Below are positions 623 to 57,729 of a DNA stretch of 64,000 bases, piece after piece. A model generated the notes under the pieces. The model did no database searches. It was not told the DNA's origin and saw only the letters and a list, made by a program, of their open reading frames with translations. The DNA is taken from assembly GCA_041650755.1 (NCBI GenBank), contig JBAZKN010000005.1, positions 580 through 64,579 on the forward strand. Reading direction: 5' to 3'. The number at the start of each line of letters is the position of its first letter. Position 1 is the stretch's first letter. Source of the DNA: Patescibacteria group bacterium (GTDB lineage Bacteria; Patescibacteriota; Patescibacteriia; UBA1558; GWA2-36-10). A program made the position numbers and the translations under genes.

Positions 623-3436
623 ATGATGAATAGTTTTGCTTTCTCAAGTCTAATAACAGGAATATTGAGCCTGTTTTTGTCTGGTTTTGTATATTTTCGT
701 AGAGGTGGTTTTGCTTTAAATAGAATATGGTCATTTGTTAGTTTTGCTGTTGCGTTTTGGAGCCTTGGTCTTTTTGGTGTTACATTTTTTAGAGATTTTA
801 AATATGCCTATATATCACAGATTATTTTAGATATATCAGCGATATTCGTGCCAGTTTTATTCTTTGAATTTGTCGTCACATTAATAGATAAAAAAATATT
901 GTATAAAAGAATTTTAAAATTTAGTTATATATTTTCTTTATTACTGGCTATTTTAAGTATAACAAAATTTTTTAAAAAAGGCTTAAAGCACATATTCGAA
1001 TTTAGTTATTGGGTTGATCCAGGAGTACTGTATCCATTGTTTCCAATATTTTTTATGGTTTTAGCAGTTTTTGCCGTTATATTATTGTTTAAATATTCAA
1101 AAAGTAGTACTGGTGTTAAGCAGCAACAAATAAAATATGTTATTTATGCCGCCTTCATTGGTTTTGGTGGTGGTATTTTTAATTTTTTACCCCAATTTTC
1201 TAGGATATACCCCATTGGAAACTATCTGGTTGGATTTTATATTATCATGATCACATACGCCATCGTAAAATACCGACTCATGAACATTCGCTTAATTTTG
1301 ACTCGCAGTATACTGTATGCGATTTTGGTGGCGGTAGTCGCAAGTTTTTTCGCTTTATCCGTATTTTTCGTGGGCAATGTTCTGGGTGGCACTAGTCAGG
1401 CCAGTAAAATTTTCACCTATATTATAAACTCTTTCATTATTGTCATTTTTCTTGACCCGCTTAAGAGAATTTTTGCCAAGATTACTGACCGTATTTTCTA
1501 TAAAGATAGAGTAGATTATCAAAATATTCTGCAGCAAGCCAGTGCTATTGTTGCCAGGGAAATTGATTTGAAAAAATTATCGCATGCCTTATCGAGGTTG
1601 ATCGCCCAACAGCTGAAAATCAAAGAAGTCTATATTTTGATTGCCCAAGGCAATAGTTTTGAATTAATCTCCAGTCTAAAGAAACATCAAAAGTCATTAA
1701 GCCTGACAGCAGACTTTATCGGCTTAATCAAAGAGCGCAAAGATTTTTTGATAGTTGAAGAGCTGATCCGCACCCAGAGCGATATTGGCAGCAGTTCGCC
1801 ATATTACCAGGTTTTGGAAAAGTTTATCAAAGAAGCCGAGAGCCTGAAGATAGAGATGGTGGTGCCGATTTTTGATGATAATAATAATTTAAGCTCCATA
1901 TTTTTGTTCAGCTCTAAAAGTTCTGGCGATCTATACAATCAGGATGACATCAATTTTTTAAAGATTCTGGTGCCGCAGATAGCCACGGCTATTGCCAAAT
2001 CCAAGCTTTATGAAGAGGTTCAGGCTTTTAATCGTGAATTGCAGGCTAAGGTAGAGGCCAGAACCAAGAGTCTCAAAGAGGCCAATCAGAGTTTAGAGGA
2101 GAGAAATAAGTTTTTGACCACCATGCAGGTTATTACCGGTCATGTTACCCGCACTCTGGACATGAAGCAGGTCAATCAGATGATTGCCAATAGCATAGCC
2201 TTGGAGCTTGGCTATATCGGTGGCGTTTTGAGCTTTGTTGATGAGGAAAATCATATTTTGCGGATTGGGGCTTTGACGGAAAATGAAAATACCAAAGCAG
2301 TAGTCAAAGTATTGGGCCGTGATCCGCGCAATTTTGAGGCCCAGCTGAAGATGGATTATTCGCTGGGGTCGCAGACCGTTTTGTCCGGAAAGATAAATTT
2401 TTCCGATAAAATGTCCGATTTTTTCTCGCCGCCGGTGGAAAAGCCAATCATGGATCAGATCCAAAGGAATTTGGGCGTCAAGACCATTGTCGGTTTGCCA
2501 ATCTTTTCGGAAAATAAAATTATCGGCATCATCCACTTTTTATTGGCAGTCGAGCGGCGGCAGGTGTCAGCTATTGATATCGAGATGATGACTGCTCTGA
2601 CCAACCAAGTCGGCATTGTTTCCCGCAATCTGCGCTTGTACAATAATCTGCAGTCAGCCAATCTGGAGTTGCAGGAAGCCAATATGCGCTTGCGCGAGCT
2701 GGATAAAGCCAAGTCAGAGTTTTTGTCTATTGCCAGCCATCAATTGCGTACGCCTATTTCCGCTCTCAAAGGCTATTTATCCATGATGATAGACGGAGAC
2801 TTTGGGCCTATCCCTGACAAAATCAAGCAAGTCATCAAAGACTTGTTTGAAAGCGCGTCTCGCTTGGCTCGCTTGATCAATGTCTTTTTAAATGTTTCTC
2901 GGATTGAGTCTGGCCGCCTGAAGCTGGAAAAGCACCCCCTTCAAGTCAATGATTTGATTATTAGCGTTATCAAAGAACTTGGCAACCAAGCTGAACAAAA
3001 GAAATTAAAACTTAGCTATCAGGAGCCAAAAACTGTTTTACCCCTAGTCAATGCTGATAGTGATAAATTACGTGAAGTCATCTTGAATCTTATTGATAAT
3101 TCTATTAAATACACGCTAGAAGGATCTATTACAACTTCAGCTTATACCGATGAGCATGGCTTTCATTTTGTGGTCAAAGATACTGGTATTGGCATTGATC
3201 CGGAAGAAGCCAAAACTTTATTTAGAAAATTTGTGCGCGGCACAGGCGTGGCCCAGATTCATACTGGTGGCTCTGGCCTCGGCTTATTTATCGCCCAAAA
3301 AATCATCAAAGAACACGGCGGCCAGGTATGGGCCGAAAGTCAGGGTAAAGGCAAAGGAAGCACCTTTCAATTTGTCATTCCCATAAATGGGGGAGATAGT
3401 GCACCGGAAACCTTGCCCGCGCCAGCAGAAAAATAG
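623..3436 (+). CDS. Membrane sensor histidine kinase (multi-TM N-terminus, GAF-like middle, HisKA + HATPase_c)
   Basis: About 8 N-terminal hydrophobic helices. H-box 'SHQLRTPISALKGY'. N-box 'LIDNSIKYT'. G1 'DTGIGI'. G2 'GGSGLGLFIAQKII'. No response regulator is adjacent. Confidence 0.85.
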   Translation: MMNSFAFSSLITGILSLFLSGFVYFRRGGFALNRIWSFVSFAVAFWSLGLFGVTFFRDFKYAYISQIILDISAIFVPVLFFEFVVTLIDKKILYKRILKFSYIFSLLLAILSITKFFKKGLKHIFEFSYWVDPGVLYPLFPIFFMVLAVFAVILLFKYSKSSTGVKQQQIKYVIYAAFIGFGGGIFNFLPQFSRIYPIGNYLVGFYIIMITYAIVKYRLMNIRLILTRSILYAILVAVVASFFALSVFFVGNVLGGTSQASKIFTYIINSFIIVIFLDPLKRIFAKITDRIFYKDRVDYQNILQQASAIVAREIDLKKLSHALSRLIAQQLKIKEVYILIAQGNSFELISSLKKHQKSLSLTADFIGLIKERKDFLIVEELIRTQSDIGSSSPYYQVLEKFIKEAESLKIEMVVPIFDDNNNLSSIFLFSSKSSGDLYNQDDINFLKILVPQIATAIAKSKLYEEVQAFNRELQAKVEARTKSLKEANQSLEERNKFLTTMQVITGHVTRTLDMKQVNQMIANSIALELGYIGGVLSFVDEENHILRIGALTENENTKAVVKVLGRDPRNFEAQLKMDYSLGSQTVLSGKINFSDKMSDFFSPPVEKPIMDQIQRNLGVKTIVGLPIFSENKIIGIIHFLLAVERRQVSAIDIEMMTALTNQVGIVSRNLRLYNNLQSANLELQEANMRLRELDKAKSEFLSIASHQLRTPISALKGYLSMMIDGDFGPIPDKIKQVIKDLFESASRLARLINVFLNVSRIESGRLKLEKHPLQVNDLIISVIKELGNQAEQKKLKLSYQEPKTVLPLVNADSDKLREVILNLIDNSIKYTLEGSITTSAYTDEHGFHFVVKDTGIGIDPEEAKTLFRKFVRGTGVAQIHTGGSGLGLFIAQKIIKEHGGQVWAESQGKGKGSTFQFVIPINGGDSAPETLPAPAEK

Positions 3437-3507: not shown

Positions 3508-3993
3508 ATGCCAAACAAGAAAAGCGACAAACAAGAAATTTTACAGGCAATCAGCGGCTTATCGGCAGCTGTATTTAATTTGACCAAAAAAGTCGATGAT
3601 TTATCGGTAAAATTAGATAAATTGACCGAACGGGTTGATGTCCTAACTGAGCGTGTCGATGTCCTAACTGAGCGTGTCGATGCTCTTACGGTAAGAGTTG
3701 AGAATCTAGAACAACAATATGAGGATATTTTATCAACTATCAATAATTTTGCCGATCAAGTGGAGCAAAGATTTTTGGCCATAGAAAAACGCTTAACTAT
3801 TTTAGAAACAAACTCTGTTACCAAAGATTATTTGGACCAAAAATTATTTGCTTTAAAAGGTGACATGATAGTTATGATGCGCCAGGAAAATACCAAGCTA
3901 GAGACCTTAGTAGAAGCTCTGCAAGAGCAGAGGAGTTTGTCTTTAGATAAAAGTAAAAGAGTATTGGCTTTAGAGCCGTTTCCTAAAATATAA
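3508..3993 (+). CDS. Coiled-coil hypothetical protein with perfect heptad tandem repeats (LTERVDV x3)
   Basis: A 21-nt unit 'gtcctaactgagcgtgtcgat' is repeated in tandem at 3640-3700. The protein is predicted alpha-helical. Confidence 0.5.
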   Translation: MPNKKSDKQEILQAISGLSAAVFNLTKKVDDLSVKLDKLTERVDVLTERVDVLTERVDALTVRVENLEQQYEDILSTINNFADQVEQRFLAIEKRLTILETNSVTKDYLDQKLFALKGDMIVMMRQENTKLETLVEALQEQRSLSLDKSKRVLALEPFPKI

Positions 3994-3996
3994 TGT

Positions 3997-4052
3997 TTTT
4001 TAACCAAGCCCCTCGCACTGCATCTACCTTTGGTAGGAAGGGCTGGGTTTTT
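3997..4052 (+). terminator. Rho-independent terminator-like hairpin followed by a T-run
   Basis: 'ccaagcccc...ggaagggctgggtttttt' has a GC stem followed by 6 T. Confidence 0.45.
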
Positions 4053-4093
4053 TGTTTGTGGATAAAATATTAGTCAGGCTCCCCTTAATATAC

Positions 4094-4122
4094 TTGACAT
4101 CTTTTTATGAGGGCGCTATATT
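4094..4122 (+). promoter_or_regulatory. Sigma70-like promoter for the RiPP-like precursor gene
   Basis: TTGACA (4094-4099), 17-nt spacer, TATATT (4117-4122). Flanked by direct repeats tttttatgagGGCGCtata / tttttatgagACGGCtata (4101-4120, 4146-4165). Confidence 0.45.
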
Positions 4123-4196
4123 TATATTATAAGTATAGACGGCTTATTTTTATGAGACGGCTATACAATGAACCTTAACACTAAGGAGGTGAACTC

Positions 4197-4388
4197 ATGC
4201 GCAAACTGAGGCGGATGAACTACTGGAGTGGATTAGCCGATCACAGGCATCCTCGCAGTGCTCAGGCGGTGTTGCGGCCATGCCTCGCGACAAGCAAGTC
4301 GAAGGGCGTTGCCAGTTCTTGCGGGCAAGGTGCCTGCAACTGCGGTGGTGGCTGCAACGGCGAATGTTCCACATCCTGTGAAGGGTGA
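4197..4388 (+). CDS. Cys-rich RiPP precursor peptide (SCIFF/ranthipeptide-like; 63 aa)
   Basis: Strong SD 'aaggaggtg' 6 nt upstream. Basic leader followed by C-terminal core 'SSCGQGACNCGGGCNGECSTSCEG' (6 Cys in 21 aa). GC is about 60% against a host of about 33%. Lies immediately upstream of a radical-SAM gene. Confidence 0.6.
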   Translation: MRKLRRMNYWSGLADHRHPRSAQAVLRPCLATSKSKGVASSCGQGACNCGGGCNGECSTSCEG

Positions 4389-4469
4389 CCAACGAGGCAA
4401 AGAGGGAGGAATATAAAAGTCAGTTATTTCTCCCTCTTACCCTTATCCTCAAATACCGGGAGGCAGAAA

Positions 4470-5489
4470 ATGTCTAGATCATTTGGATTACAGTGGCACC
4501 TAACCAACGATTGCGATCAGCGCTGTAAGCATTGTTACATCTGGCAAAAGCACGACAAGGAGGGGTTGACATCTACACCTACACTGGAACAGTGTCAGTC
4601 TATCATCGAGGACTTTTGTGCGTTCTGCGGGGAAATGGGAGTTATTCCTTATTTCTCCATAACCGGTGGTGACCCTTTGCTTTATCAACACATTTGGGAG
4701 GTGCTGGAAGTATTGCGTCGTAAGAGTATAAGTTTCACCATACTAGGCAATCCATTTCATCTGACCGACGACAGAGCTAAGTTGCTGAAGGACTTAGGTT
4801 GCGTCAGTTATCAGATGTCTTTGGACGGGCTTGAGAAAACACATGATTCTATGCGCAAGCCGGGATCGTTTCTGGCAACACTTGCAGCCTTGCCGCTGTT
4901 GCACGATGTTGGGATTAGAAGTATGATCATGTCAACAGCGTCCATGCTCAATTACCGCGAGCTTCCGGACGTTGCCAGGCTGTGTGTTGAGCATCATGTT
5001 GGCAACTTCGCATTTTCCCGGTACTGTCCGACACGGGGTGACACCGAGTTTAACATGTCACCACAGCTCTACCGTCAATTTTTGACGGAAATGTGGCAGG
5101 TTTTTAGCGAACTTGTTGATAGCGGTACCAACTTTGCTCTCAAGGATCACTTGTGGGTGCCCTACCTTTACGAGGAGGGGTTGTATCAGCTTGGTGAGGT
5201 TAAGGACCTTGTTCTCGACGGTTGCAACTGCGGCATTAGTCACATGACCTTACTGCCTAACGGCACGGTCTATGCGTGTCGTCGCTTTGAGAGCTTGGTC
5301 GGGAGTATTAAACAACGCAGTTTCAAGGAGATTTTTCTATCGCCAGAGATGGACACGTACCGCCAAATCGAGAATCTGTCTGGTTGTAAGGACTGTGTCT
5401 TGCTAAATTACTGCCGTGGTTGTCACGCAGTTTCCGCGGGCACAACTGGGGATTTTTTCAGCAAGGATCCTCAATGTTGGCGAGTTTAA
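4470..5489 (+). CDS. Radical SAM / SPASM-domain peptide-modifying enzyme (anSME-like, no N-terminal RRE)
   Basis: N-terminal CX3CX2C 'CDQRCKHC'. C-terminal Cys clusters 'CNCGISH...CRRF...CKDCVLLNYCRGCH' are typical of SPASM auxiliary Fe-S sites. High GC. Confidence 0.75.
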   Translation: MSRSFGLQWHLTNDCDQRCKHCYIWQKHDKEGLTSTPTLEQCQSIIEDFCAFCGEMGVIPYFSITGGDPLLYQHIWEVLEVLRRKSISFTILGNPFHLTDDRAKLLKDLGCVSYQMSLDGLEKTHDSMRKPGSFLATLAALPLLHDVGIRSMIMSTASMLNYRELPDVARLCVEHHVGNFAFSRYCPTRGDTEFNMSPQLYRQFLTEMWQVFSELVDSGTNFALKDHLWVPYLYEEGLYQLGEVKDLVLDGCNCGISHMTLLPNGTVYACRRFESLVGSIKQRSFKEIFLSPEMDTYRQIENLSGCKDCVLLNYCRGCHAVSAGTTGDFFSKDPQCWRV

Positions 5490-5493
5490 CTGA

Positions 5494-5528
5494 AATAGCG
5501 ATAGTAACTTCAAGAGTGCTATCGCTAT
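5494..5528 (+). terminator. Inverted repeat / hairpin downstream of the radical-SAM gene
   Basis: aatagcgatag ... ctatcgctatt forms an 11-bp perfect stem. Confidence 0.4.
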
Positions 5529-5567
5529 TATCTAAGTATAATTTCTATTATACTATATAATATAATT

Positions 5568-6191
5568 ATGAGTTATAATCAAATTTACAAAAAAAGATCA
5601 GTTTGGGGAGATGAGCCGAATATACTATTGCGGCAAATTTTTGAAAAATTGACGCCTAAAGACAAGTTTCTTGATTTAGGGTGCGGTCAAGGCAGAGATG
5701 TTTTATTTATGTTGGCCAAGGGATTCAGGGTGACCGGTGTTGATGCATCACCGGAATCTATAAATCATATAAAAAATTTAGTAAAGATAAATAGATTATC
5801 AACGGTAAATTTCGAGCTAGTTTGTGGCGACATTAGTAGCTACATTATAAAAGATGATATGTTTGACATTATTAATGCTTATAATTCTTTGCAATTTTTG
5901 TCCAAAAAGGATGCTTTCCGAGTATTAGAAAATATAAAGAACAATATCAAAAAAAATGGTTATATTATCATATCGGGTTTTACCATAGATGATCCGCTGT
6001 ACAAAAAAATTGGCAATGATAAACGCTGTTTTTTTGAACGAGGTGAGTTAAAAAAAATATTTTCCGAAGCAGATATTATTTTATATAACGAAGAAATTAT
6101 TAATGAAAATGGTCATGCGGGCAATCCAGAGCCGCACATACACGGAATTACAAGGATTATAGCACAAAAAAATATTGGATCAGATAGTTGA
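5568..6191 (+). CDS. Class I SAM-dependent methyltransferase (TehB-like)
   Basis: Motif I 'FLDLGCGQGRD'. Size matches a small-molecule or peptide methyltransferase. AT-rich, unlike the neighbouring RiPP genes. Confidence 0.6.
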   Translation: MSYNQIYKKRSVWGDEPNILLRQIFEKLTPKDKFLDLGCGQGRDVLFMLAKGFRVTGVDASPESINHIKNLVKINRLSTVNFELVCGDISSYIIKDDMFDIINAYNSLQFLSKKDAFRVLENIKNNIKKNGYIIISGFTIDDPLYKKIGNDKRCFFERGELKKIFSEADIILYNEEIINENGHAGNPEPHIHGITRIIAQKNIGSDS

Positions 6192-6245
6192 TTGTCTGCT
6201 AAATTGTAGAACCAGTTTTATTATCGATTTTTTTAAAATAAATAC

Positions 6246-6896
6246 ATGAAAAAATACCTTAGCTTAAAATCGGTGAAGGTTGATAAAAAGTTATCAGCAT
6301 TCCTAACTGCAACTAAGGAAGAGTTTGATAATTTTTATGATTTTAAGGCCACTGAACCACTGTTATTTTTTGTGCCCAGCCGACAAGATTTAGATTTGAT
6401 CATGGGGAAGAAAACTGAAAAATGGTTTGTTGGCGTGACTAAAAATAACGCTATCTTTATTTTGGACAAAAATATTTATGCCAAAGAATCAAATCATAAG
6501 GCAAAAAATTTTTGGTTAACACTCAAGCATGAATATAGTCATATTTACTACTCGCAAATGACCAATAGCCATTATCCTTGTTGGTTAAACGAGGGATTGG
6601 CCTGTTATCTGTCTGGTAAAAAATTAATTTTAAGCAAGGATTATAATAGCGCCCTGGATGTTTTTAATTATTTTGACAAGAGTGGTTCAAATGTATATAT
6701 GATAGGCCAATTTTGGGTTGAATTTTTAATTAAAAAATTTGGCAAGAAAAAACTTGTTAGGCTCATAAAAAGTTTAAATTTTGAAGCAAGAATAAGTGAA
6801 CGTCGATTTGCTAGTGAATTTTATAAAATATACGATTTTAGGTTTGATAAAAAATCTTTCACTAAAAAATTGGGAAAAAATAAAAATTTAATATAA
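6246..6896 (+). CDS. Hypothetical protein with an HExxH motif (possible zinc metallopeptidase)
   Basis: 'LKHEYSHIYY' matches HExxH. No other recognisable domain. Confidence 0.3.
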   Translation: MKKYLSLKSVKVDKKLSAFLTATKEEFDNFYDFKATEPLLFFVPSRQDLDLIMGKKTEKWFVGVTKNNAIFILDKNIYAKESNHKAKNFWLTLKHEYSHIYYSQMTNSHYPCWLNEGLACYLSGKKLILSKDYNSALDVFNYFDKSGSNVYMIGQFWVEFLIKKFGKKKLVRLIKSLNFEARISERRFASEFYKIYDFRFDKKSFTKKLGKNKNLI

Positions 6897-6934
6897 AAAA
6901 ACCAGGCATCCTTTAGTAATTAATTTTTAATAGG

Positions 6935-8062
6935 ATGCGAAAGAAAAGCGATTTGGAGGGCTGGCAATTGGCAGTCGTGGTTTTGCTACTGTTGATCCCT
7001 AGTTTTGGGACTTTAGCTAAAACAGCCAAGACTGTCACTAGCCAGACTAAGTACATTGATAAATACTATCAAGTAGATCAAAACGGCAAAACACAGGTCA
7101 ACATTTATTTGGGCGATGAGAAGATTGCCAGTCTAGATAGTGGGGGAAATTTCAGCTTCCCTATTGTTGATCATCTGGGCTCACCCACAATCATTACTGA
7201 TACCAAGGGCCAAATAGTGGCCACAAATGACTACAGAGCATTTGGTAGCTTACCTACCAGTACCAGTATGGCAGGGAGCAATCGGTATAAGTACACCGGC
7301 AAAGAGCTGGACGCGGAAAATAATTTGGAATATTTTGGCCAGCGCTATTATGATGCGATTTTGGGCAGATTTACTAGCATTGATCCAATGTTGCTCAAAA
7401 ATCCAAGCAAGTTTTTGGCTGATGTGCAAAGTTTAAATAGTTACGCCTATGCCAAGAATAACCCCATAACCTTTTTTGACCCCGTTGGCTTATTGACTAA
7501 GATTTACTTGGAGAAAAACAAAGATAAAGGCTGGTTTGAACCACGGTACGATCATGCTTTTATGGCTATTAACGGCAAAGTGTATAATTGGGAAAGTAAT
7601 GTGGGTCGAGAATATCATCAGCAGGATGGTCGTTGGTTGGGTGAAGACATGGACGTTGTCAATTGGACAAATTTTATGAACCGGGCAGATAACGCTAAAG
7701 CCGAATATGATATTTATACATTGGATACCAGCCGTAAGCAGGAAGAGGGGATGCAACGATATTGGCTCAATTTAGCTTGGGCTAACATGGCTGACCAGGG
7801 TGATTTGCGGACCATCTATAATAAATTTTTGCAGAGCACTGACGCAGTAGTTGAAGCGTTGCGGCGGGGCGGTGTAGTTAATCAGAATTTTAAAGTTGGT
7901 CGTCAGACCGCCAATCCGGAAAAATTGGGTTATGAGCTATGGTTTAAATATAATTTAGATAAAGAAAATAACCAGGCGAAAAATAAATATTATAATAATA
8001 TTCGTCCTAATAAATTTTTCGCGCCAGTTGTGGATCTCGCGACTTATAAATATCAACCTTAA
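6935..8062 (+). CDS. Small secreted RHS-repeat-associated core protein with a C-terminal toxin domain
   Basis: N-terminal signal/TM segment. 'YKYTGKELDAENNLEYFGQRYYDAILGRFTSIDP' and 'NSYAYAKNNPITFFDPVGLL' match the RHS core and DPxGL cleavage motif. About 190 aa of unique sequence follow it. Confidence 0.65.
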   Translation: MRKKSDLEGWQLAVVVLLLLIPSFGTLAKTAKTVTSQTKYIDKYYQVDQNGKTQVNIYLGDEKIASLDSGGNFSFPIVDHLGSPTIITDTKGQIVATNDYRAFGSLPTSTSMAGSNRYKYTGKELDAENNLEYFGQRYYDAILGRFTSIDPMLLKNPSKFLADVQSLNSYAYAKNNPITFFDPVGLLTKIYLEKNKDKGWFEPRYDHAFMAINGKVYNWESNVGREYHQQDGRWLGEDMDVVNWTNFMNRADNAKAEYDIYTLDTSRKQEEGMQRYWLNLAWANMADQGDLRTIYNKFLQSTDAVVEALRRGGVVNQNFKVGRQTANPEKLGYELWFKYNLDKENNQAKNKYYNNIRPNKFFAPVVDLATYKYQP

Positions 8063-8067
8063 TAAAT

Positions 8068-8940
8068 ATGAACAAGGGACAATTAAAAAATATATTAAGC
8101 AGTGATTATCAAGCTGAAAATTATGACAGCTTGAAGTTTTGGCAAAGCTACAGAACCTGGGCAATGATTGCCATGTTTATTTCTTTAGCAATTTCTGCTT
8201 GGGTATTTACTTATGACTTATGGATAGTTTTTTATCTATTGATACTTTATATTTTTTTAGCAATCTTGATAGTTCGTGGCTATAAATGGCCGCTAGTGGC
8301 CATGATGGTTGTTTGGCTTTTGGAAAAATATAATAATGATGGTTATTTGATAATAAAATTTTGGTCAGTGCCAATATTTTTGCTGATTGGCATTATTTTG
8401 TTCTGGTTGCTTTATGTTTCATTTAAGATTCAAGTCGCTCGCCGGCATAATAATGGGAAAAGTAGAAAACATTATTTAGTAGTGTTGATCGGCATTGCAC
8501 TAGTTTTACTGCTGTGGTATGGCTTGTCATGGGCGAAGTATTATGGATTTGGCCAGCCAAAATTTAATTTTGTTGTTCAGGAGCAGAATAACAAAACCAT
8601 TATTAGGGAAGAAGTATTTAATATTAAATTTCAGATCGATGCTAAGTGCCGTTTAGAATCAGATAATCTGGATCGGCAGGCGACTGCGGATCTATGGTCA
8701 GGTCAACTCTGGTGCCAAGGTTACGACGACTACGTTGATTTTTCCGTTGACCAAAATATTGATAGTAGCCATGGTCAGGATAAGCCGATAGGCACTCGAG
8801 CTTGGCTGTTTGATAAACCGGATGAATTTTGGGCCATAGATGTTTATGACAGTCAAAATAAATATCGTTTGTTGGTTGGTGGCTACAGCAATACGGATAA
8901 TATAAAAAATGATCTTGTCAGCAGTTTAATACAGGAATAA
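8068..8940 (+). CDS. Multi-TM membrane protein (candidate immunity protein for the upstream RHS toxin)
   Basis: 4-5 hydrophobic helices. Lies immediately downstream of the RHS-CT gene. Confidence 0.35.
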   Translation: MNKGQLKNILSSDYQAENYDSLKFWQSYRTWAMIAMFISLAISAWVFTYDLWIVFYLLILYIFLAILIVRGYKWPLVAMMVVWLLEKYNNDGYLIIKFWSVPIFLLIGIILFWLLYVSFKIQVARRHNNGKSRKHYLVVLIGIALVLLLWYGLSWAKYYGFGQPKFNFVVQEQNNKTIIREEVFNIKFQIDAKCRLESDNLDRQATADLWSGQLWCQGYDDYVDFSVDQNIDSSHGQDKPIGTRAWLFDKPDEFWAIDVYDSQNKYRLLVGGYSNTDNIKNDLVSSLIQE

Positions 8941-8967
8941 GATGTAATCATTATTAATTTTAATCAT

Positions 8968-11900
8968 ATGCCGAGTAAAAAATCTCTAAGTTTTCGCCCC
9001 ATTATTGGCTTAATGTTGGCGAGTTTGTTTTTATCAAATTTTTCGCTAATTTTAGCCAAAAAAGCTCAAGCGCAAGAATCAGAACCGGAAATTTCTAACC
9101 AAATAACGCCGGTTGATCCGATTATCCAGCCTGTGGATAACTCAAATGGGGAAATCATGGGTCTGCCGATAAAGGAAATAGCTAAACCAATACCCAGTCC
9201 GATATTTTTGGATCCAGTTGTCGAAGATCCGGTTTTGGATCCGATAATCGAGGAGCCGTCATTAGATCCGATTATTGAGCCGGGCGATCAGGCACCGATA
9301 AGCGATGATGGCGCAATAAGCAACGACACTGCTGAAGAAATGGACATGATGTCTGGCGAAGATGGTGTGGTTGATATGTATGGTAATCGAGATAATGTTG
9401 GCAAACAGCCAAAAGATAAGGTGGGCAGCTATAATATCGATGAATTGACCGGCTTATTTTCTTATTCTTATTCCCTGTCTATCCCCAAGGGTCGAACCAA
9501 TCTACAGCCAGATATCGCTCTGCAATACAATCATCGGCAGGTGAATATTGGCTCTATGGCAGGTTTTGGCTGGAGTCTGTATATGCCAAGTATCGAAAGA
9601 GACAACCGTACTGGTATTGATAATATATATAATGAGAAATATTTTATTTTAAACTTGGGCGGCAGCAGTCAATTGCAGCCGATAAGCGTGGATAGCAGCG
9701 GCTATGGCACCTATGGCAAGCTGGTTGATTCTAATTTCGCTAAAGTTGAATTTAGCAGTGAAAACAAGTGGATAGTCACTGATAGATTGGGCACAGCTTA
9801 TACCTTTGGCGCCGATATAAATGCTCGACAGGATAACCCCAATAACTCCACCCAGATTTATAAATGGATGCTTCAGGAAATCAGGGATACTAATGATAAT
9901 TTCGTAAGGTATGAATATTATAAAGATAGCGGGCAAATTTATCCCAAGAAAATATTTTACACCGGCTCAGGTGTGACCGACGGTATTTATGAAGTTGATT
10001 TTCAGCCCTTTGCTTCCGGTAGTTTGACGCAAAACAATATTGCCAACTCATCTTACCAAACGGGTTTTGAAGTTAAAACGCAATATTTATTGGATAGAAT
10101 TGAAATTAAAGTAGAGGGCCAGATAAAAACTGTTTATGATTTAGTGCAACATTTGAATGAAACCAGCAGCAAATATTTATTGCAATCAATAGTGCCTCAA
10201 TTTTATAATGGCGGCGCAGGATTTACCAAAGATCAGGTGGATTTTCAGTATTCATATCAAGCAACCACGTATTCAGCTACTAGTCAGTACGACCTGCCAA
10301 ATAATATGATTTTAGGTGCCGAGAGCCAACAGGGATATGGCAAACAGGATTACTTTTTAGATTTAAATAGTGATAGTTATACTGATTTTATTCGGGTCAG
10401 TTGTTCCAGTGGACAAGTCGATGTTGACGCTTGGCTCAACAATGGTCAAGGAGCGTGGGCAACTAGCACAGCCTTTGATTTGAGCACTAGTTTTAGCGGT
10501 AATTGCGGCGGCGTGTTTGGTGGTACGTATTATTCCTTGCCTCTTACTTTTGCCAATCTAAACGGCGATCATTTTATGGATATGGCTATGGATGATCGTT
10601 TTTATATCAATAGCGGCAGTGGTTGGCAACAGTCATCTAGCACTCTGCCGGTATCATTGACTCAAGTATCGCATGCCGGTTTACCACCCATGAATCTAGT
10701 AATTTTTCAAGACATGAATGCTGACGGCTATGATGATATTATTTATAATAACCATACCGACCTTACGGCCAACATAGATGTTTATTTGCGTAATATCGGT
10801 ACCGGCGGCTGGATTCTGGATAATGATTATCATAATTCAGTGACCATGGAATCTAGTGATTGTCTGGCTTATGGGGGTGATCCTTATGGTTTTGCCGATC
10901 TAAATAATGATGGTCTGGGTGATGTGTTTTATAAATATAGCTGTCAATATGGCGAGCATCATGAGCAAGGCGAAGGCATACTTTTTAATACCGGTAGTAG
11001 CTTTATTTCCGGTACGGTGAGTATGGACTTGCCAATTATGAGTTATTTTTTAGACATAGCCACTCCAGAGCAAACAGTAAATTATTTTAGCGATTTGGAT
11101 GGAGATGGCTTGAGTGATCGTGGTTATTATCACAAGGTTGAGGAAAACAGCACATGGTCTCAAGGAAATTTGTCTTTAATGGGTCAAACTGTGTTTGATA
11201 CGGGGGATATAGAAGATTATGGGGACTATTATAAATTATCTTTACCAGTGGCCATCGCTGATTTCAATGGCGATCAGGTGCAAGATATCATTCATTCCGG
11301 CGGCTCATTTGCCGATACATATTTTGGCAAAGGAGAAAAATTGGATATCATGCGAGAGATTGATAATCAATCTGGTTCTAAGATATATATTAGCTATGGT
11401 TTTTCCGCTCAAGAAAAAAATACCGATGGCAGCCTGGCTAATCCGGATTTGCCGTTTAATATGTATGTAGCCAGAGAAGTAGTCATCGATGATGGCGTCA
11501 ATAATTGGTCTGGCTACCAATATCAGTACGCCGCTGGTAAAACAATGGAAATTGCCAGCGAGAAATTGCGCGATGTATATGGTTTTGCCAAAGTTACCAA
11601 TCGGCAGGGTCAGGCTTTGCCGATTGATTTGGGGGATGGAAGTGACGGTGTTTATGTATCTACCGGCAATGATATCTGGGAAACAGACAAAAATTTTACT
11701 TCTATATTAATCAATGAGGGGCACACTGTAGTTGTAAAAAATGGTATTAAGATAAAAAATCAAGGAGTCGCCGTCATTAATGGCATTTTGTCTGCGCTTG
11801 GCCAAGGGTACCAATATGATGAATCTGGCCCTGGTCAAGGCGGCAGCGGCTTGCTTTGCGGCATATATAACGCGGCCGGCGGCGGCGGCGGTTCGTATGG

Positions 11901-14900
11901 CGGTTTGGGAACCGCCGGCCAGGAGCCAAGCGGCTGCTCCAATAAAGCTGGCCAGCCCGGACCAACTTATGGTTATGAAGATTTAAATATAATGTTTTTG
12001 GGGTCTAGCGGCGGCAATGGCGGCGATGTTGGCCGAGGCGGCGGCTATGGAGATGCTGGCGCCGGCGGCAATGGCGGCGGTATTATAATATTAAATTCTT
12101 TATCTTTAGAGCTTGGCATCAACGGCCAGATCAATGCCAATGGCCAAGATGGCGGTTCAGCTACTTTGGATAGCGGTCTTTGGTCTGGCGCCGGCGGCGG
12201 CGGCGGATCGGGCGGATCAATATATATTCAAACCATTGAAACAACTAGTATCGGAAGTGGCCAGGTAAAGGCCTTGGGTGGCCAGGGCGGCAATGAATAC
12301 CATTCAGTCGGTATGGAACCCTCTGGTAATGGCGGCGTGGGCGGCGATGGCCGCATTAGAATAGAGTCGTACAATGGCCAGATCAATGGATCATCCCAAC
12401 CAAATTATTTTTCTAATACTGAATTTATTCCGTCTGTGAGCAATATCTACAATGACATAAATTTACAGAAAATAGTAAATGATTATAACATCGCTTCAGA
12501 CGCGGGCCTGTATCTGCACGGCAAAGTAAAGTATAGCAGCCGTTATGACTGGCAGGATAATATGTTGGGCAAGAAAATTGTTCAATGGCAGACAGAGGAT
12601 CTGGGTCAGAACAGAAGGTTTGTTTATAGTGATCAAGATACCGATACTCAGATTCATTTATTGGAGGGTGGGCCTTTGCGTGAGTATGATGTCGACGCCA
12701 ACACAGTAGCGCTATACCATATGAATGGTATTGTTGGCACGCAAGATAAAAAAGATAATGCCCAGGGCAATGGCACTTATGATTTGGTAGAGGAGGGTTT
12801 TGGCAGCGCCAACGTAGATACTGGCTTTAATGGCCAGGCTAACGGCGCCTATAAAGGAGTTTCCACTAATACTAGAGCATATGCACCAGTATATGGTATT
12901 GGCGACGATGCTTTTACTTTGGAAATGTGGATCAAGTATAATGGCAGCGTTTTGACTATGCGGCCGTTTGGCAAGATTAATAATAGTAATCTCGGTTTTG
13001 TGGCCGAATATGATAATAATCAAAATTATATTTGGTTTTATTCTCAATCTGACAAATATACCTGGACAGTGCATTCAGCGCAAAACTCCATACATTTGGG
13101 TCAATGGCAACATTATGCTTTTGTGGTGGATACGCAGAACGCCTATATTTATATTGATGGCGATTTATCTGGCCAAGGCCCAGTGACATATAATGGCGGT
13201 GATGCAGTCAACGAAAAGTTGTATCTATTTTGCCATAAGGCAAATTGTAATGATGCCGGGCCATTTTCTATTGATGAATTGCGTATCTCTAATATAGCCA
13301 GAAATAGCCAGGAAATATTTGATTATTATCACAACACGCAGGAGCCATACTATGAAACTAGCGTCGCTTCGCAATATGAATATAATACTGATAATGGCAA
13401 TTTGCTGACTAAACATGATTTAGGTAAAGTAACGGTTAATTTAAATACCGGTCAAATCACCGATCAGCTTACTGGTGACGAAAAAGACACCAACTACGAA
13501 TATGCCCAAAATACCACCAAGCATATCCTGGCTGCCCCGAAGAATAAGGAAATCAGCAGCATTGCCGAAAGTAAAGATCAGGATTTATATTATGATAATT
13601 TACCTTTGGGCCAAGTAGAAAAAGTCAATCTTACCAAAGAAGATTATAAAACAGACGCGGTCGAAGTAAAACGAGTTTTCAACAGCTATGGTTTGGTCAG
13701 CGCCGAGATTGATCCAAAAAATGCCACCACCACCATCGTCTACGACAGCCCCAATCTTTATCCGGCTTCTGCGACCAATGCCTTGAATCAGGTGACTTTG
13801 ACTGACTACAATTTATTCAACGGCCAAGTAGCCAGCTCCACCGATCCCAATGGCTCAAGAACCGTAAATACATTTGACGCTTTTGGCCGCCTGGTCCTAA
13901 CGCAGATTTCCGATCCTGGCAATCCGACAACTTTGCTGACCAAGCAAGAAATAAGTTATCAAGACACGATTTTGCCTAGATACAAAGAAGTCAAAGATTA
14001 TTATACCGCCAGTCAATATCAGACTAGCAGGGAATACTATGATGGTCTTAATAGAGTGGTTCAGAAAAAATCCCAGACCGGAAATTCCGGCGAATATGCC
14101 ACAGTAGATATTAGCTATGATGCTCAAGGCAGAGTAGAGCGCCAGTCTTTGCCCTATATGACCAGCAGTTTGGCCTATAGCTCGGCAGATCTGTCCAAAC
14201 CAGCTAAAACCTATACTTATGATGCTCAAGACAGGATTTTGACCGAAACAACGCCGGTTGGCACAAGCAGCTATGAGTATGACGGCTTCATTACTGTTAT
14301 CACTGACGCCAATGGCCACGTCAAAGAATTGACCAAAGATGCCTATGGCAATTTAGTCCAAGTCAAAGAGCACAATGGCGCCAGTGTCTATACTACCAAC
14401 TACGAATATACATTGACAAACAAGCTCAAGAAAATCACGGACAGTGCTGGCAATATTCGCAACTTTAGCTATGATGCTCTGGACAATTTGACTTGGCAGG
14501 ACATGGTGCATAAGCCCAGTGTTGCAAATCCCGCCAAGATCCAATACACCTATGACAAAAATGGCAATGTCTTAACAGAAACATCTTTTAAGAACGATGC
14601 CATATCCTATACTTATGATAATTTAAACAGAGTCCTGAATGAAAAATTGTCCGGCGCTACTAAAATAAACTACACTTATGACAATGGCCAGTATAATAAA
14701 GGCAAGCTTATTTTCGCTGATTATGGCTTAGGCAATTCTAAGCGCTATAACTATGATATTTTGGGCCGCCTGACTACCGCCACCACTACCATTGCCAATG
14801 AGCCCTTTGTCTTAAAGTACGAGTACAATCTAGCCGGCGCTCTATCCAAAGTCACTTATCCAAACAATTGGCAAGTAGCTTACAGCTTCAATGATATCGG

Positions 14901-16722
14901 CCAAGTAAGCTCTATATCTCTGGACAAAGGCCAAGGCCCAATAAATATAGCCACCAATATCATTTACAACCAAAATGGCCAGATGACTCACCTGGAAAGG
15001 GACAATGACGCCATAACCGACTATACCTATGACCCCAATCAAGCCTTTAGACTGACCAGGATTCTGACTACTTCTGGCCAGGACACTCTGCAAGACCTCA
15101 ACTATACCTATGACGATGTAGGCAATATCTTGAACATAGTAGATAACGCCAATACTGATCTCAAGAAATCAGCTACCTACACCTACGATGACTTAAATAG
15201 GTTGCTTTCAGCTACAGTAAGCTACACCAACCACCCAGATAAAAACTACACCCAGACATTTACCTATGACAGTATTGGTAATATGACAGCAAACTCTGAT
15301 CTAGGTACAATGAACTATCTAAATAACAATCCTCATCAGCTCACCTCTGTAGGCTCAAGGAACTTTGTCTATGACAATGCCGGCAACCTTAATAGGGAAA
15401 TAGGCCTAAGAAAGTACTACTGGGACCATAGAAACAGACTAAAGAATACTTTTGATATAGCTTCAGAAGACAACACCTACTATCTCTATGACCATAATAA
15501 CCAAAGATTCATAAAATGGACTGAAGACTACCTCTACTACCCTCCAGATCCAGAAATACCCACTGAATCTCTATCTATTCCCGACAGAGGCCTGGATAAT
15601 CTAGATTCTACTGAAGAACTGACCCTAGACGGTGGCACAGGCTACTGGGCTTGGACTGTGGTATCACAGGATAAGTATGTTGATAAATACTTTGAGAAGA
15701 ACCTTAATAACCAGACTAAAACCCACCTATACCTCGATAATATTAAATTAGCTACTATAAATAATAATGGTAATCCAAACTACATACTATCTGACCACTT
15801 AAGCTCTTCAGATATTATTATAGACAGCTCTGGATCTATTATGGAGTCAACTGATTACAAACCTTTTGGTAGTATACAAGCTGAATATACTGTTACAGAC
15901 CCCATTTCAGACTACAAGTTTTCAGGGAAAGAGGTGGACGAGGAGAGTGCTTTACAATATTTTGGGGCAAGGTATAATGATAATCAGTTGGGGAGGTTTA
16001 TAACGATAGATCCATTACTCTTAGATTTGGAAGATAGTGAAAATTACAATAAGCAAATATTAGAACTATTTATAGATCCTCAACAACTGAACTCATACAG
16101 CTATGCCAGGAATAACCCAATTATTTACACTGATCCATCTGGTCAGTATGTAGAAACAGCCCTTGATTTGATTTCCCTAGCTTTATCTTATTACGATTAT
16201 CAACATAAAAAGAGTACCTGGAACATGGTATTTCTGGGGCTAGATATAGTAGGCGTTGCAGCTCCTTTGCCATCGTTAGGACTAGCAAAGAATGGATACA
16301 GAACATACAAAATAGCTGATTATTTCCATGGTATTGCCAAAAATGTTGATGATGTTATAAACTTAGGGGAGCTATTTGTTAAGAATGCAAATTTTAAGTT
16401 CACTCAAAGAGCCTGGTCTGCTGGTGAAGCTGGAAATGATGTAGCTAGTTTAGTCGGGCATTATTATAAACATGGAGCAGAAGTTGGGGCTAAGAATGTT
16501 GATGAGTATTATAGTATGGCTAATAGTTTAATCAATTCCGCAGATAATACAACCGTCTTCAAACTTGATGGTGTTTATGGCAAGGGTTATGTTGATTATT
16601 TTAATCCTACAACACGTGAGTTAGTCGGTTTAAATAAGAGTGGCCAAATAAGTTCCTATCAAATGGTCTATGATCAAGTAAAATTTGATAAGTTAAGCGA
16701 TGCTGTTAATAATTTAAGGTAA
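8968..16722 (+). CDS. Giant secreted RHS/YD-repeat polymorphic toxin, a fused Tc-toxin TcB/TcC-like protein (SpvB-N, FG-GAP-like propeller, Gly-rich beta-helix-like segment, LamG-like, YD repeats, RHS core, C-terminal toxin)
   Basis: Signal peptide. SpvB-like 'GFGWSLYMPSIERD' with 'LQPDIALQYNHRQ'. FG-GAP-like 'DLNGDHFMD / DMNADGYDD / DLNNDGLGD / DFNGDQVQD'. 'ELRISNIARN' is LamG-like. Many YD repeats (YTYDAQDRIL, YEYDGFITV, YTYDKNGNVL...). RHS core 'YKFSGKEVDEESALQYFGARYNDNQLGRFITIDP ... NSYSYARNNPIIYTDPSGQY'. A unique C-terminal domain of about 190 aa follows. Confidence 0.85.
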   Translation: MPSKKSLSFRPIIGLMLASLFLSNFSLILAKKAQAQESEPEISNQITPVDPIIQPVDNSNGEIMGLPIKEIAKPIPSPIFLDPVVEDPVLDPIIEEPSLDPIIEPGDQAPISDDGAISNDTAEEMDMMSGEDGVVDMYGNRDNVGKQPKDKVGSYNIDELTGLFSYSYSLSIPKGRTNLQPDIALQYNHRQVNIGSMAGFGWSLYMPSIERDNRTGIDNIYNEKYFILNLGGSSQLQPISVDSSGYGTYGKLVDSNFAKVEFSSENKWIVTDRLGTAYTFGADINARQDNPNNSTQIYKWMLQEIRDTNDNFVRYEYYKDSGQIYPKKIFYTGSGVTDGIYEVDFQPFASGSLTQNNIANSSYQTGFEVKTQYLLDRIEIKVEGQIKTVYDLVQHLNETSSKYLLQSIVPQFYNGGAGFTKDQVDFQYSYQATTYSATSQYDLPNNMILGAESQQGYGKQDYFLDLNSDSYTDFIRVSCSSGQVDVDAWLNNGQGAWATSTAFDLSTSFSGNCGGVFGGTYYSLPLTFANLNGDHFMDMAMDDRFYINSGSGWQQSSSTLPVSLTQVSHAGLPPMNLVIFQDMNADGYDDIIYNNHTDLTANIDVYLRNIGTGGWILDNDYHNSVTMESSDCLAYGGDPYGFADLNNDGLGDVFYKYSCQYGEHHEQGEGILFNTGSSFISGTVSMDLPIMSYFLDIATPEQTVNYFSDLDGDGLSDRGYYHKVEENSTWSQGNLSLMGQTVFDTGDIEDYGDYYKLSLPVAIADFNGDQVQDIIHSGGSFADTYFGKGEKLDIMREIDNQSGSKIYISYGFSAQEKNTDGSLANPDLPFNMYVAREVVIDDGVNNWSGYQYQYAAGKTMEIASEKLRDVYGFAKVTNRQGQALPIDLGDGSDGVYVSTGNDIWETDKNFTSILINEGHTVVVKNGIKIKNQGVAVINGILSALGQGYQYDESGPGQGGSGLLCGIYNAAGGGGGSYGGLGTAGQEPSGCSNKAGQPGPTYGYEDLNIMFLGSSGGNGGDVGRGGGYGDAGAGGNGGGIIILNSLSLELGINGQINANGQDGGSATLDSGLWSGAGGGGGSGGSIYIQTIETTSIGSGQVKALGGQGGNEYHSVGMEPSGNGGVGGDGRIRIESYNGQINGSSQPNYFSNTEFIPSVSNIYNDINLQKIVNDYNIASDAGLYLHGKVKYSSRYDWQDNMLGKKIVQWQTEDLGQNRRFVYSDQDTDTQIHLLEGGPLREYDVDANTVALYHMNGIVGTQDKKDNAQGNGTYDLVEEGFGSANVDTGFNGQANGAYKGVSTNTRAYAPVYGIGDDAFTLEMWIKYNGSVLTMRPFGKINNSNLGFVAEYDNNQNYIWFYSQSDKYTWTVHSAQNSIHLGQWQHYAFVVDTQNAYIYIDGDLSGQGPVTYNGGDAVNEKLYLFCHKANCNDAGPFSIDELRISNIARNSQEIFDYYHNTQEPYYETSVASQYEYNTDNGNLLTKHDLGKVTVNLNTGQITDQLTGDEKDTNYEYAQNTTKHILAAPKNKEISSIAESKDQDLYYDNLPLGQVEKVNLTKEDYKTDAVEVKRVFNSYGLVSAEIDPKNATTTIVYDSPNLYPASATNALNQVTLTDYNLFNGQVASSTDPNGSRTVNTFDAFGRLVLTQISDPGNPTTLLTKQEISYQDTILPRYKEVKDYYTASQYQTSREYYDGLNRVVQKKSQTGNSGEYATVDISYDAQGRVERQSLPYMTSSLAYSSADLSKPAKTYTYDAQDRILTETTPVGTSSYEYDGFITVITDANGHVKELTKDAYGNLVQVKEHNGASVYTTNYEYTLTNKLKKITDSAGNIRNFSYDALDNLTWQDMVHKPSVANPAKIQYTYDKNGNVLTETSFKNDAISYTYDNLNRVLNEKLSGATKINYTYDNGQYNKGKLIFADYGLGNSKRYNYDILGRLTTATTTIANEPFVLKYEYNLAGALSKVTYPNNWQVAYSFNDIGQVSSISLDKGQGPINIATNIIYNQNGQMTHLERDNDAITDYTYDPNQAFRLTRILTTSGQDTLQDLNYTYDDVGNILNIVDNANTDLKKSATYTYDDLNRLLSATVSYTNHPDKNYTQTFTYDSIGNMTANSDLGTMNYLNNNPHQLTSVGSRNFVYDNAGNLNREIGLRKYYWDHRNRLKNTFDIASEDNTYYLYDHNNQRFIKWTEDYLYYPPDPEIPTESLSIPDRGLDNLDSTEELTLDGGTGYWAWTVVSQDKYVDKYFEKNLNNQTKTHLYLDNIKLATINNNGNPNYILSDHLSSSDIIIDSSGSIMESTDYKPFGSIQAEYTVTDPISDYKFSGKEVDEESALQYFGARYNDNQLGRFITIDPLLLDLEDSENYNKQILELFIDPQQLNSYSYARNNPIIYTDPSGQYVETALDLISLALSYYDYQHKKSTWNMVFLGLDIVGVAAPLPSLGLAKNGYRTYKIADYFHGIAKNVDDVINLGELFVKNANFKFTQRAWSAGEAGNDVASLVGHYYKHGAEVGAKNVDEYYSMANSLINSADNTTVFKLDGVYGKGYVDYFNPTTRELVGLNKSGQISSYQMVYDQVKFDKLSDAVNNLR

Positions 16723-18749: not shown

Positions 18750-19075
18750 GGTAAGCTGTTGGTAACTAGAGCCTTCGCAAGACCTCAAAAGTGAGCTAAG
18801 CTAAAGGTGGACTTTTAGTTCTTTTTTAGCTAAAATATAGTTAACAATTAAATAACATTGGCTTAACAGCCAAGCGCCTAAACTTAAGGATTTTCCTTGG
18901 GCATGGTGCAAAAACCTATAACAGTAAATGGCTCGTCGTCAGAGCACTGTTATAGGTCATGCCTCGAAAGGGGTATGGGTCTCCGTAAGGGGATCGCTGG
19001 CGGCGGGCTTTTTGCATCTCCGGCAGCCCTCTCACTTAGGTCGAAAGTGAGTCTAGGAATTAATTATTAATCAAA
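18750..19075. ncRNA. Candidate structured RNA or island-border element (unassigned)
   Basis: GC-rich. Nested perfect stems (ggcatgg...cctataacagt / actgttatagg...tcatgcc), GNRA-like 'cgaaagg' and 'tcgaaagtga' loops, no ORF. Confidence 0.25.
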
Positions 19076-46958: not shown

Positions 46959-47164
46959 AAAAAATTATATAATGATTGTTTATAATTTTTTGTAATAAAA
47001 TAGGGGACTCGGTTGAGCCCCCCTTGCCCTGAGGTAGGGGTGCAAATTGCACTACTATTAAACATAACACAATATCATATTTTTTTAATTTTGTCAATAG
47101 TTTAATAAAATAAATATTTGACAACTTTTATTTTTTCCTTTATAATATCTACACAATTAATTTT

Positions 47165-47322
47165 AAATAACCGTAGACAGTGGGTTTTTTGGCTAATATT
47201 GGCCCCAATTAGACATAAGTGTCTAACGGGGTAAACCAAAATATAAATCCTACCGAGGTACAAAATACTTTTATTTAGTGTTTTAATGTCTGCGGTTGAT
47301 CGCAGATTTTTTAATAAAAAAC
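47165..47322 (+). promoter_or_regulatory. Putative rplJ (L10) leader / autoregulatory attenuator
   Basis: Structured 5' region directly upstream of rplJ. Ends in hairpin 'gtctgcggttgatcgcagat' plus a T6 run. Confidence 0.35.
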
Positions 47323-57447: not shown

Positions 57448-57522
57448 GGCCTCTTCGTCTAGCGGTTAGGACACTAGGTTCTCATCCTAGTAACAGGGGT
57501 TCGATTCCCCTAGAGGTCACCA
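57448..57522 (+). tRNA. tRNA-Glu (anticodon CTC)
   Basis: Cloverleaf read by eye: acceptor ggcctct/agaggtc, D-loop tagcggtta, anticodon loop ttCTCat, T-loop ttcgatt, CCA end. Confidence 0.85.
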
Positions 57523-57652
57523 AAAGAAAATAGCTTTGCGAGTTAAGGGTTTTTACACTCCGAAGCCCGAAGGGCGTAGGATGGGCGATTCCCTGCTGTG
57601 CCCCGCGAAGTCCCGTGGAGCGGGACGGAGTGGGGTGGGGTCACCATTTTAG

Positions 57653-57729
57653 GGGTGCATAGCTCAGTTGGTTAGAGCGTTGCGTTCACATCGCAAAGGT
57701 CCCTGGTTCGAGTCCAGGTGTACCCACCA
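57653..57729 (+). tRNA. tRNA-Val (anticodon CAC)
   Basis: Acceptor gggtgca/tgtaccc, D-loop agttggtta, anticodon loop ttCACat, T-loop ttcgagt, CCA end. Confidence 0.8.

Follow-up and report, generated by a model that had tools for sequence, protein, structure and literature searches.

The 64,000-nucleotide stretch of contig JBAZKN010000005.1 (positions 580 to 64,579) from a Patescibacteria group bacterium, referred to here as the window, contains near its 5' end three consecutive forward-strand genes coding for a cysteine-rich peptide, a radical S-adenosylmethionine (SAM)/SPASM enzyme and a TehB-like methyltransferase. The best explanation, to which we give a probability of roughly 0.7, is that they constitute a three-gene cassette of the ribosomally synthesised and post-translationally modified peptide (RiPP) type, belonging to the ACGX system and representing a distinct, Patescibacteria-centred subtype of it. 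We consider it highly likely that this is a RiPP cassette of the ACGX-system family with cysteine-directed radical chemistry. The members of the cassette, in order, are:

4197..4388, forward strand: precursor peptide, 63 amino acids; Shine-Dalgarno (SD) sequence AAGGAGG at 4183-4189, 7 nt before the ATG
4470..5489, forward strand: radical-SAM/SPASM maturase, 339 amino acids, ACGX-system family (TIGR04340 and Pfam)
5568..6191, forward strand: TehB-like class I SAM methyltransferase, 207 amino acids (Pfam TehB 66.1 bits, cutoff 20.4)

The enzyme contains the Pfam Radical_SAM (73.5 bits) and SPASM (34.6 bits) domains, and residues 4-338 of 339 match TIGR04340, "radical SAM/SPASM domain protein, ACGX system", with 430.1 bits (E 6.3e-129; cutoff 400). 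An identical protein is already present in NCBI under the ACGX-system name, in a Patescibacteria metagenome-assembled genome, and the relatives at 50-78% identity are, where the sources name them, mostly from Patescibacteria. The second-best NCBIfam family is SbtM (TIGR04082; 208.5 bits, E 1.7e-61, model positions 197-515 of 516), the cutoff of which (350) is not reached. This score is nonetheless twice that of the next family, with AhbD, NirJ and TIGR04053 at approximately 100 bits. PapB (NF047865; 57.4 bits vs 340), StsB (54.9 vs 625) and SkfB (47.7 vs 300) all remained below their cutoffs, and the SCIFF maturase model TIGR03974 was not among the 25 best NCBIfam matches. An earlier interpretation of this DNA, made without database searches (the sequence-only reading), had placed the pair with the SCIFF, ranthipeptide and sactipeptide systems; the match to TIGR04340 replaces that assignment.

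The same reading had correctly recognised a radical-SAM enzyme with an N-terminal CX3CX2C motif and a SPASM-type cysteine region. The former is C15-x3-C19-x2-C22, the SAM-cluster motif, and the auxiliary-cluster cysteines comprise C252/C254-x10-G265-x4-C270, C306-x2-C309-x5-C315-x2-C318, C336 and C186. Among 39 homologues C15, C19, C22, C186, C252, C270, C306, C309, C315, C318 and C336 are invariant, and C254 is conserved in at least 90%; this set is sufficient for the SAM cluster and two auxiliary clusters. Since the radical-SAM domain begins at residue 11 and no domain precedes CX3CX2C, the enzyme lacks a RiPP recognition element (RRE), as had also been noticed previously. The AlphaFold model (pLDDT 90, pTM 0.90) is compact and anSME-like, with no extra domain. 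Using Foldseek against the PDB, the nearest solved folds were the anaerobic sulfatase-maturating enzyme (anSME) 4K37 and SuiB (TM 0.76-0.77), closely followed by TigE, ChlB, SkfB and PqqE, all of them 15-20% identical to the enzyme. It is therefore a bona fide RRE-less SPASM member of the already named ACGX-system family.

The precursor (MRKLRRMNYWSGLADHRHPRSAQAVLRPCLATSKSKGVASSCGQGACNCGGGCNGECSTSCEG) was found where the sequence-only reading had put a 63-residue open reading frame (ORF) with a strong SD. It ends in the core SSCGQGACNCGGGCNGECSTSCEG, which is C42-G-Q-G-A-C47-N-C49-G-G-G-C53-N-G-E-C57-S-T-S-C61-E-G, and this core is preceded by a leader with the motif L..NxW...SAQ..L (L4, N8, W10, SAQ21-23 and L26). 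The six-cysteine core sequence had been reported correctly, but the spacing of C42, C47, C49, C53, C57 and C61 is x4/x1/x3/x3/x3 and not x3/x1/x3/x3/x3. The peptide has no match in Pfam or NCBIfam, and none to the ACGX precursor model TIGR04341 even at E<=10. As a control, this model does detect canonical precursors (32 bits in locus L079 and 52 bits in L076; cutoff 28). The homologue search proposed earlier yielded 55 precursor clusters, all of them unnamed or "hypothetical", e.g. from Candidatus Buchananbacteria and Patescibacteria.

Across 50 aligned precursor sequences C47, N48, C49, G50, C53 and C57 are invariant, and C42, G43, G51, G52, N54, G55 and E56 are conserved in at least 90%, while conservation of the leader is limited to N8, W10, Q23 and L26. 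When all precursor classes are considered, including the ACGSACGAG-repeat peptides that match TIGR04341, W10 and Q23 are invariant and A22 is kept in at least 90%. Since these leader residues are retained across classes, the leader is homologous family-wide and the core marks a separate class. A core more conserved than its leader is unusual in antibiotic RiPPs and resembles cofactor-type or SCIFF-type precursors. The pattern observed here thus points to a conserved physiological role (metal binding, cofactor or signal) rather than to an arms-race antibiotic. With 55 clusters, a near-invariant core and the precursor lying directly 5' of the enzyme gene in relatives, the pairing of peptide and enzyme is far beyond chance, and the RiPP architecture originally proposed for the two genes is upheld.

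Other cores also occur beside TIGR04340-like enzymes, namely TSCCIDTTK repeats in the methanogen-type locus L004 (7247-7444, reverse strand) and ACGSDINT repeats in the related locus L042 (3631-3876, forward strand), illustrating a wide core diversity behind a single leader motif.

The third gene proved to be a regular member of the cassette. For comparison, loci were gathered from genomes (4), metagenomes (80) and exact-protein look-ups (10); redundancy was removed, the loci were classed by precursor type, and a homologue of the window methyltransferase was sought within 1 kb. It was found directly 3' of the maturase in all 11 non-redundant metagenome loci with a CNCGGGC-type precursor, and in none of the 13 canonical ACGX-repeat loci; among loci with other Cys-dense precursor types it is present in 11 and missing in 9. 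The order precursor-enzyme-methyltransferase is seen in L001, L002, L005, L007, L009, L014, L021, L024, L029 and L091-L093. Methyltransferase identity to the window protein (27-57%) tracks that of the enzyme (49-72%; Spearman 0.59, p = 0.006), so that the three genes travel as one unit and are not a foreign pair that landed beside native genes. The methyltransferase is thus an obligate, co-inherited cassette member for CNCGGGC-type precursors. Its nearest PDB structures are TehB proteins, and it lies below both TehB equivalog cutoffs (NF008405, 68.9 bits vs 218; TIGR00477, 59.6 vs 219.5); the product is TehB-like, not TehB.

The following signals flank or separate the genes of the cassette:

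4002..4060, forward strand: terminator-like hairpin and T-run at the 3' end of the upstream coiled-coil gene (low confidence)
4089-4120 and 4134-4165, forward strand: direct repeats, two copies of 32 nt, 72% identical, 45-nt spacing, overlapping the promoter and 5' untranslated region (UTR)
4094..4122, forward strand: sigma-70-type promoter TTGACA-17-TATATT, 11/12 matches, the top score within 3900-7000
4394..4444, forward strand: intergenic stem-loop (inner stem of 14 bp), lying between the stop codon of the precursor and the SD of the maturase gene (arms 4395-4413 and 4425-4443)
5494..5529, forward strand: perfect 11-bp inverted repeat after the maturase stop (dG -18.5, z -4.9)

The stem-loop between precursor and enzyme genes has a folding energy of -27.7 kcal/mol (z -4.6), and equivalent hairpins occupy this position in 12 of 13 related loci (z -2.3 to -6.1), with differing stem sequences and, in some, U-runs. 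It is a candidate attenuator or mRNA-stabilising hairpin; a hairpin between precursor and enzyme genes is the classic layout for excess precursor transcript. A TTGACA promoter is likewise located 60-110 nt 5' of the precursor in related loci, near-consensus in most. Both the promoter with its two direct repeats and the hairpin downstream of the pair, i.e. the inverted repeat at 5494-5529, had been pointed out in the sequence-only reading and were recovered here. Since the latter has no T-run, it is not a canonical intrinsic terminator. The 19-nt core of the direct repeat, TTTTTATGAGnnnGCTATA, lies at 4102-4120 and 4147-4165; these two copies compare with 0.16 expected in 64 kb, and the window holds no further copy. 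The repeat is not conserved upstream of related loci, and we have therefore rejected it as a family-wide regulatory site; it either arose by local duplication of the promoter or serves as a binding site for a regulator. The hairpin at 4002-4060 (dG -20.5, z -2.0; followed by GGGTTTTTTGTTTG) was missed by a consensus scan because of its large loop, and may, with low confidence, delimit the cassette as a separate transcription unit. An Rfam scan of 3900-5600 revealed no known RNA element.

In one precursor sub-group the 5' UTRs have in common a palindrome, TTAGTACA...TGTAC, situated just 3' of the promoter (L021 ~7650-7680, L024 ~600-635, L029 ~7650-7690 and L031 ~870-890). It is absent from the window and is a possible operator or RNA element.

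Based upon these observations we propose the following scheme. The strong promoter would drive the 63-amino acid precursor, followed by the enzyme and methyltransferase genes, and the hairpin after the precursor stop probably lets precursor mRNA outnumber enzyme mRNA. The enzyme would recognise the conserved NxW...SAQ..L leader directly, without an RRE, and act on cysteines of the near-invariant core CG.G.CNCGGGCNGEC. By analogy with SbtM and anSME, the 5'-deoxyadenosyl radical would abstract a hydrogen from the cysteine C-beta; this mechanism was chosen because SbtM is the closest characterised relative and anSME the closest fold. SbtM itself oxidises Gly-Cys twice to form a thio(seleno)oxazole, each time taking hydrogen from the Cys C-beta (PMC9204691). 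In the present case a thioaldehyde-like intermediate might form a ring with the preceding carbonyl, yielding 5-thiooxazoles (-4 Da per site), after which the TehB/TPMT-like enzyme could methylate a soft sulfur nucleophile, either the thiooxazole or a Cys sulfur (+14 Da per site). Thiooxazole rather than thioether chemistry is a tentative choice, made by analogy and at somewhat below even odds, and S-methylation as the task of the methyltransferase is possible but doubtful. Thiooxazole peptides made by MNIO enzymes, the bufferins, chelate copper (PMC11626156), and so a metal-related role is one possibility for the product; a signal sensed by 7TM kinases is another.

Several points weigh against this scheme. 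The SbtM score falls short of its cutoff (208 vs 350), and the enzyme has no counterpart of the N-terminal 196 residues of SbtM. Since anSME, SuiB, TigE, ChlB and SkfB folds score alike, the chemistry is not readable from the fold, and no experiments on any ACGX-system enzyme were found in the literature searched. Free thiooxazoles would be expected to bind metal, which S-methylation would prevent. Canonical ACGX systems are devoid of the methyltransferase, indicating that methylation is not intrinsic to the family, and in the related loci neither a protease nor a transporter accompanies the cassette with any consistency. In addition, N48, N54 and E56, which are invariant or nearly so, might instead accept thioether links or be methylated.

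An alternative, which corresponds to the proposal of the sequence-only reading, is that the same cassette installs thioether cross-links of the sactionine or ranthionine type, connecting the six cysteines to the C-alpha, C-beta or C-gamma of acceptors such as Asn48, Asn54, Glu56 and Gln44, with the methyltransferase modifying a carboxylate, an amide or a leftover thiol. We regard this as possible, though on the unlikely side. Apart from the conserved Asn and Glu residues, it is favoured by the fact that SkfB, SuiB, CteB-type and PapB-type families are all detectable relatives of the enzyme, and most characterised pairs of a Cys-rich precursor and a SPASM enzyme yield thioethers. However, the thioether-forming families score far under SbtM (PapB 57, StsB 55 and SkfB 48 vs 208 bits), and the absence of an RRE sets the enzyme apart from most sacti- and ranthipeptide maturases. 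The canonical ACGX cores (ACGSACGAG), moreover, have only Ala, Gly and Ser around their cysteines; as they are without Asn and Glu, the chemistry common to the family cannot depend upon these residues.

It is very improbable that the peptide is no RiPP at all, i.e. that the small ORF specifies an unmodified metallothionein-like metal-binding peptide and the enzyme acts on some other substrate. The invariant four-cysteine motif C-x-C-x3-C-x3-C does resemble a metal site, the lack of a conserved neighbouring protease or transporter would be in keeping with this view, and the heme-modifying AhbD and NirJ are the next-best families of the enzyme after SbtM, at about 100 bits. Against it, the peptide gene adjoins the enzyme gene in the same orientation across diverse core classes while one leader motif is kept, which is the signature of leader-guided modification, and in NCBIfam TIGR04340 and TIGR04341 are defined as partners in one system. 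An anSME converting Cys to formylglycine, with its sulfatase partner encoded elsewhere, is effectively refuted. The Clostridium perfringens anSME 4K37 is the best solved-structure match (TM 0.76), and both proteins are RRE-less and of approximately 340-370 amino acids, but the anSME model TIGR03942 gave only 56.5 bits vs a cutoff of 349, identity is 17-18%, and the enzyme has a conserved, dedicated peptide partner. The sequence-only reading had named clustering with anSMEs, together with a sulfatase gene, as the outcome that would speak against its proposal; the enzyme is not an anSME, and no C/S-x-P-x-R sulfatase signature was found in window ORFs of at least 80 amino acids.

The origin of the cassette was likewise reconsidered. 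Both genes had been described as about 55-60% GC in a genome of about 33% GC, and as recently acquired. The measured values are 59.4% for the precursor, 48.2% for the enzyme, 48.0% for 4094-5540 and 39.1% for the window, so the contrast had been overstated. A recent transfer of precursor and enzyme into an AT-rich genome, beside unrelated native genes, now appears unlikely. In its favour, GC content within the first 37 kb peaks at the pair, and the GC content at third codon positions (GC3) of the enzyme gene is 0.544, vs 0.28-0.29 for the next two genes; in addition, the cassette flanks differ in every related locus, so that the cassette does move between genomes. Yet the enzyme value exceeds the average for 52 ORFs of the window by just 1.6 standard deviations, and Cys, Gly and Ala codons largely account for the GC richness of the precursor gene (GC content at second codon positions 0.66). 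Of 19 related loci (L001-L049), 15 have a higher GC3 in the enzyme gene than in the methyltransferase gene beside it, by up to 0.30, and in 10 of 15 loci the enzyme gene is richer in GC than the remainder of the locus. Because the GC3 step at 5490-5567 recurs across loci, it is a property of the cassette and not a junction of foreign and native DNA. The AT-rich methyltransferase gene is itself a conserved, co-evolving member, and the named closest relatives (58-78% identity) are labelled Patescibacteria. Given the modest GC3 excess, the recurring step and the co-variation of the methyltransferase, the GC contrast was rejected as proof of recent transfer. Possible causes of the GC3 excess of the enzyme gene are codon bias linked to expression, the structure of the mRNA and partial replacement on repeated occasions. 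With different neighbours in each of the related loci, the cassette as a whole probably moves among Patescibacteria. From 38 to 63 kb the window contains a block of core genes with elevated GC3 (0.45-0.52).

Two further genes near the cassette were considered as possible partners:

623..3436, forward strand: histidine kinase with HisKA_7TM-GAF-HisKA-HATPase domains (Pfam), upstream of the cassette
6246..6896, forward strand: HExxH (HEYSH) protein, 216 amino acids (Peptidase_MA_2 29.5 bits, below the cutoff of 32.4)

In six independent loci HisKA_7TM proteins are encoded no more than ~3.5 kb from the cassette, namely in the window, L007 (1798-3426), L009 (7097-10562), L018 (4920-6557), L022 (4248-5723) and L093 (9781-11991), some being 7TM-only paralogues, and none were seen in distant loci. 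In L009 four HisKA_7TM-type genes are arranged in tandem and are followed by an autoinducer-synthase-like gene (PF00765). These kinases may regulate or sense the peptide; their recurrence is suggestive, though not controlled for the background frequency of such kinases. Perhaps CNCGGGCNGEC peptides form a Patescibacteria-wide class combining radical-SAM Cys heterocycles with TehB-type S-methylation, with metal-binding, redox or signalling functions, as opposed to antibiotic ones, sensed or regulated by the kinases; taken as a whole, this is speculative and quite unlikely.

The sequence-only reading had suggested that the methyltransferase and the HExxH protein could be tailoring or leader-processing enzymes. 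Both genes are present, and of the two only the methyltransferase turned out to be a conserved member. A sequence comparison with the PDB revealed no relative of the HExxH protein, and its homologues adjoin the cassette only in L009/L010 (E 5e-35, directly 5' of the precursor) and L032 (2e-4). As it recurs in just three independent loci, it was rejected as a core member; it is a possible, weakly supported accessory or leader peptidase, whose membership in the cassette is doubtful.

Immediately upstream, at 3508-3993 (forward strand), is a coiled-coil protein gene with three tandem 21-nt repeats near 3637-3700 that encode LTERVDV/LTERVDV/LTERVDA; the protein has weak, sub-threshold matches to coiled-coil families only. 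Directly 3' of the cassette there are a small RHS/YD-repeat-like protein (6935-8062, forward strand) and a 2584-amino acid RHS-type giant protein (8968-16722, forward strand). This region (6935-16722) resembles a variable region of the toxin-delivery type, and a Gly-rich segment at ~11.8-12.4 kb reaches 55% GC. In two independent loci (L007 1-1687; L091 1026-1625) genes with Fic domains closely precede the cassette. Elsewhere, the window contains a full-length Rfam LOOT RNA (RF03000) small RNA motif at 18875-18995 (forward strand; 89.4 bits vs a gathering score of 46.4), and a ribosomal protein L10 leader plus three tRNAs at 47153-47321, 57448-57726 and 63039-63112.

Patescibacteria, or the candidate phyla radiation (CPR), have tiny genomes with few recognised biosynthetic clusters, and a literature search on RiPPs and radical-SAM enzymes in this group yielded nothing but generic surveys of biosynthetic gene clusters. 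That a three-gene cassette is kept across many of them, with a core conserved above its leader, suggests a needed physiological molecule. The enzyme family already has a name; the new elements are the CNCGGGCNGEC class of precursors, whose genes public annotation leaves without a functional name, the methyltransferase as their obligate partner, and the hairpin conserved between precursor and enzyme genes. The ACGX radical-SAM peptide family is widespread in candidate-phyla bacteria, and the window cassette overturns no expectations. With its compact RRE-less enzyme, 63-amino acid substrate and dedicated methyltransferase it offers an easy entry point to the ACGX-system family, and could show whether SbtM-type thiooxazole chemistry reaches beyond Geobacter selenopeptides.

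Of the known systems, anSME shares with the window enzyme the closest solved fold, a compact, RRE-less architecture, two auxiliary clusters and, if our analogy holds, abstraction of the Cys C-beta hydrogen. Sequence identity and the hidden Markov model score, far below its cutoff, separate the two, as does the substrate, which here is a dedicated small peptide and not a sulfatase. SCIFF and ranthipeptide systems likewise place a short six-Cys precursor with a highly conserved core next to a SPASM enzyme, but the enzyme family and leader motif are different, and the window cassette is without an RRE and with a methyltransferase. Bufferins and the MNIO metallophores would have in common with our peptide the same Cys-derived, copper-chelating 5-thiooxazole (PMC11626156) only if SbtM-like chemistry holds; they are made from other precursors by an MNIO iron enzyme instead of a radical-SAM enzyme, and no signal peptide is seen in the window peptide.

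SbtM is the best-scoring characterised family, the match spanning the whole radical-SAM/SPASM part of the enzyme, and it acts on Cys in the small-residue context Gly-Cys (PMC9204691). It differs in the N-terminal ~196 residues missing from the window enzyme and in selenocysteine, which does not occur here; furthermore, its precursor presents one or two sites, whereas that of the window has many clustered cysteines. The ACGX system (TIGR04340 plus TIGR04341), which was defined in silico, shares the enzyme family, the peptide-then-enzyme order, the NxW...SAQ leader and the lack of an RRE. Its canonical cores consist of ACGSACGAG repeats with Pro/Lys/Glu-rich linkers and match TIGR04341, whereas the window peptide, with its compact, near-invariant CNCGGGCNGEC core, fails this model. 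The TehB-like methyltransferase, missing from 13/13 canonical loci, is always attached to the window subtype, which is found mainly in Patescibacteria rather than in Firmicutes or methanogens.

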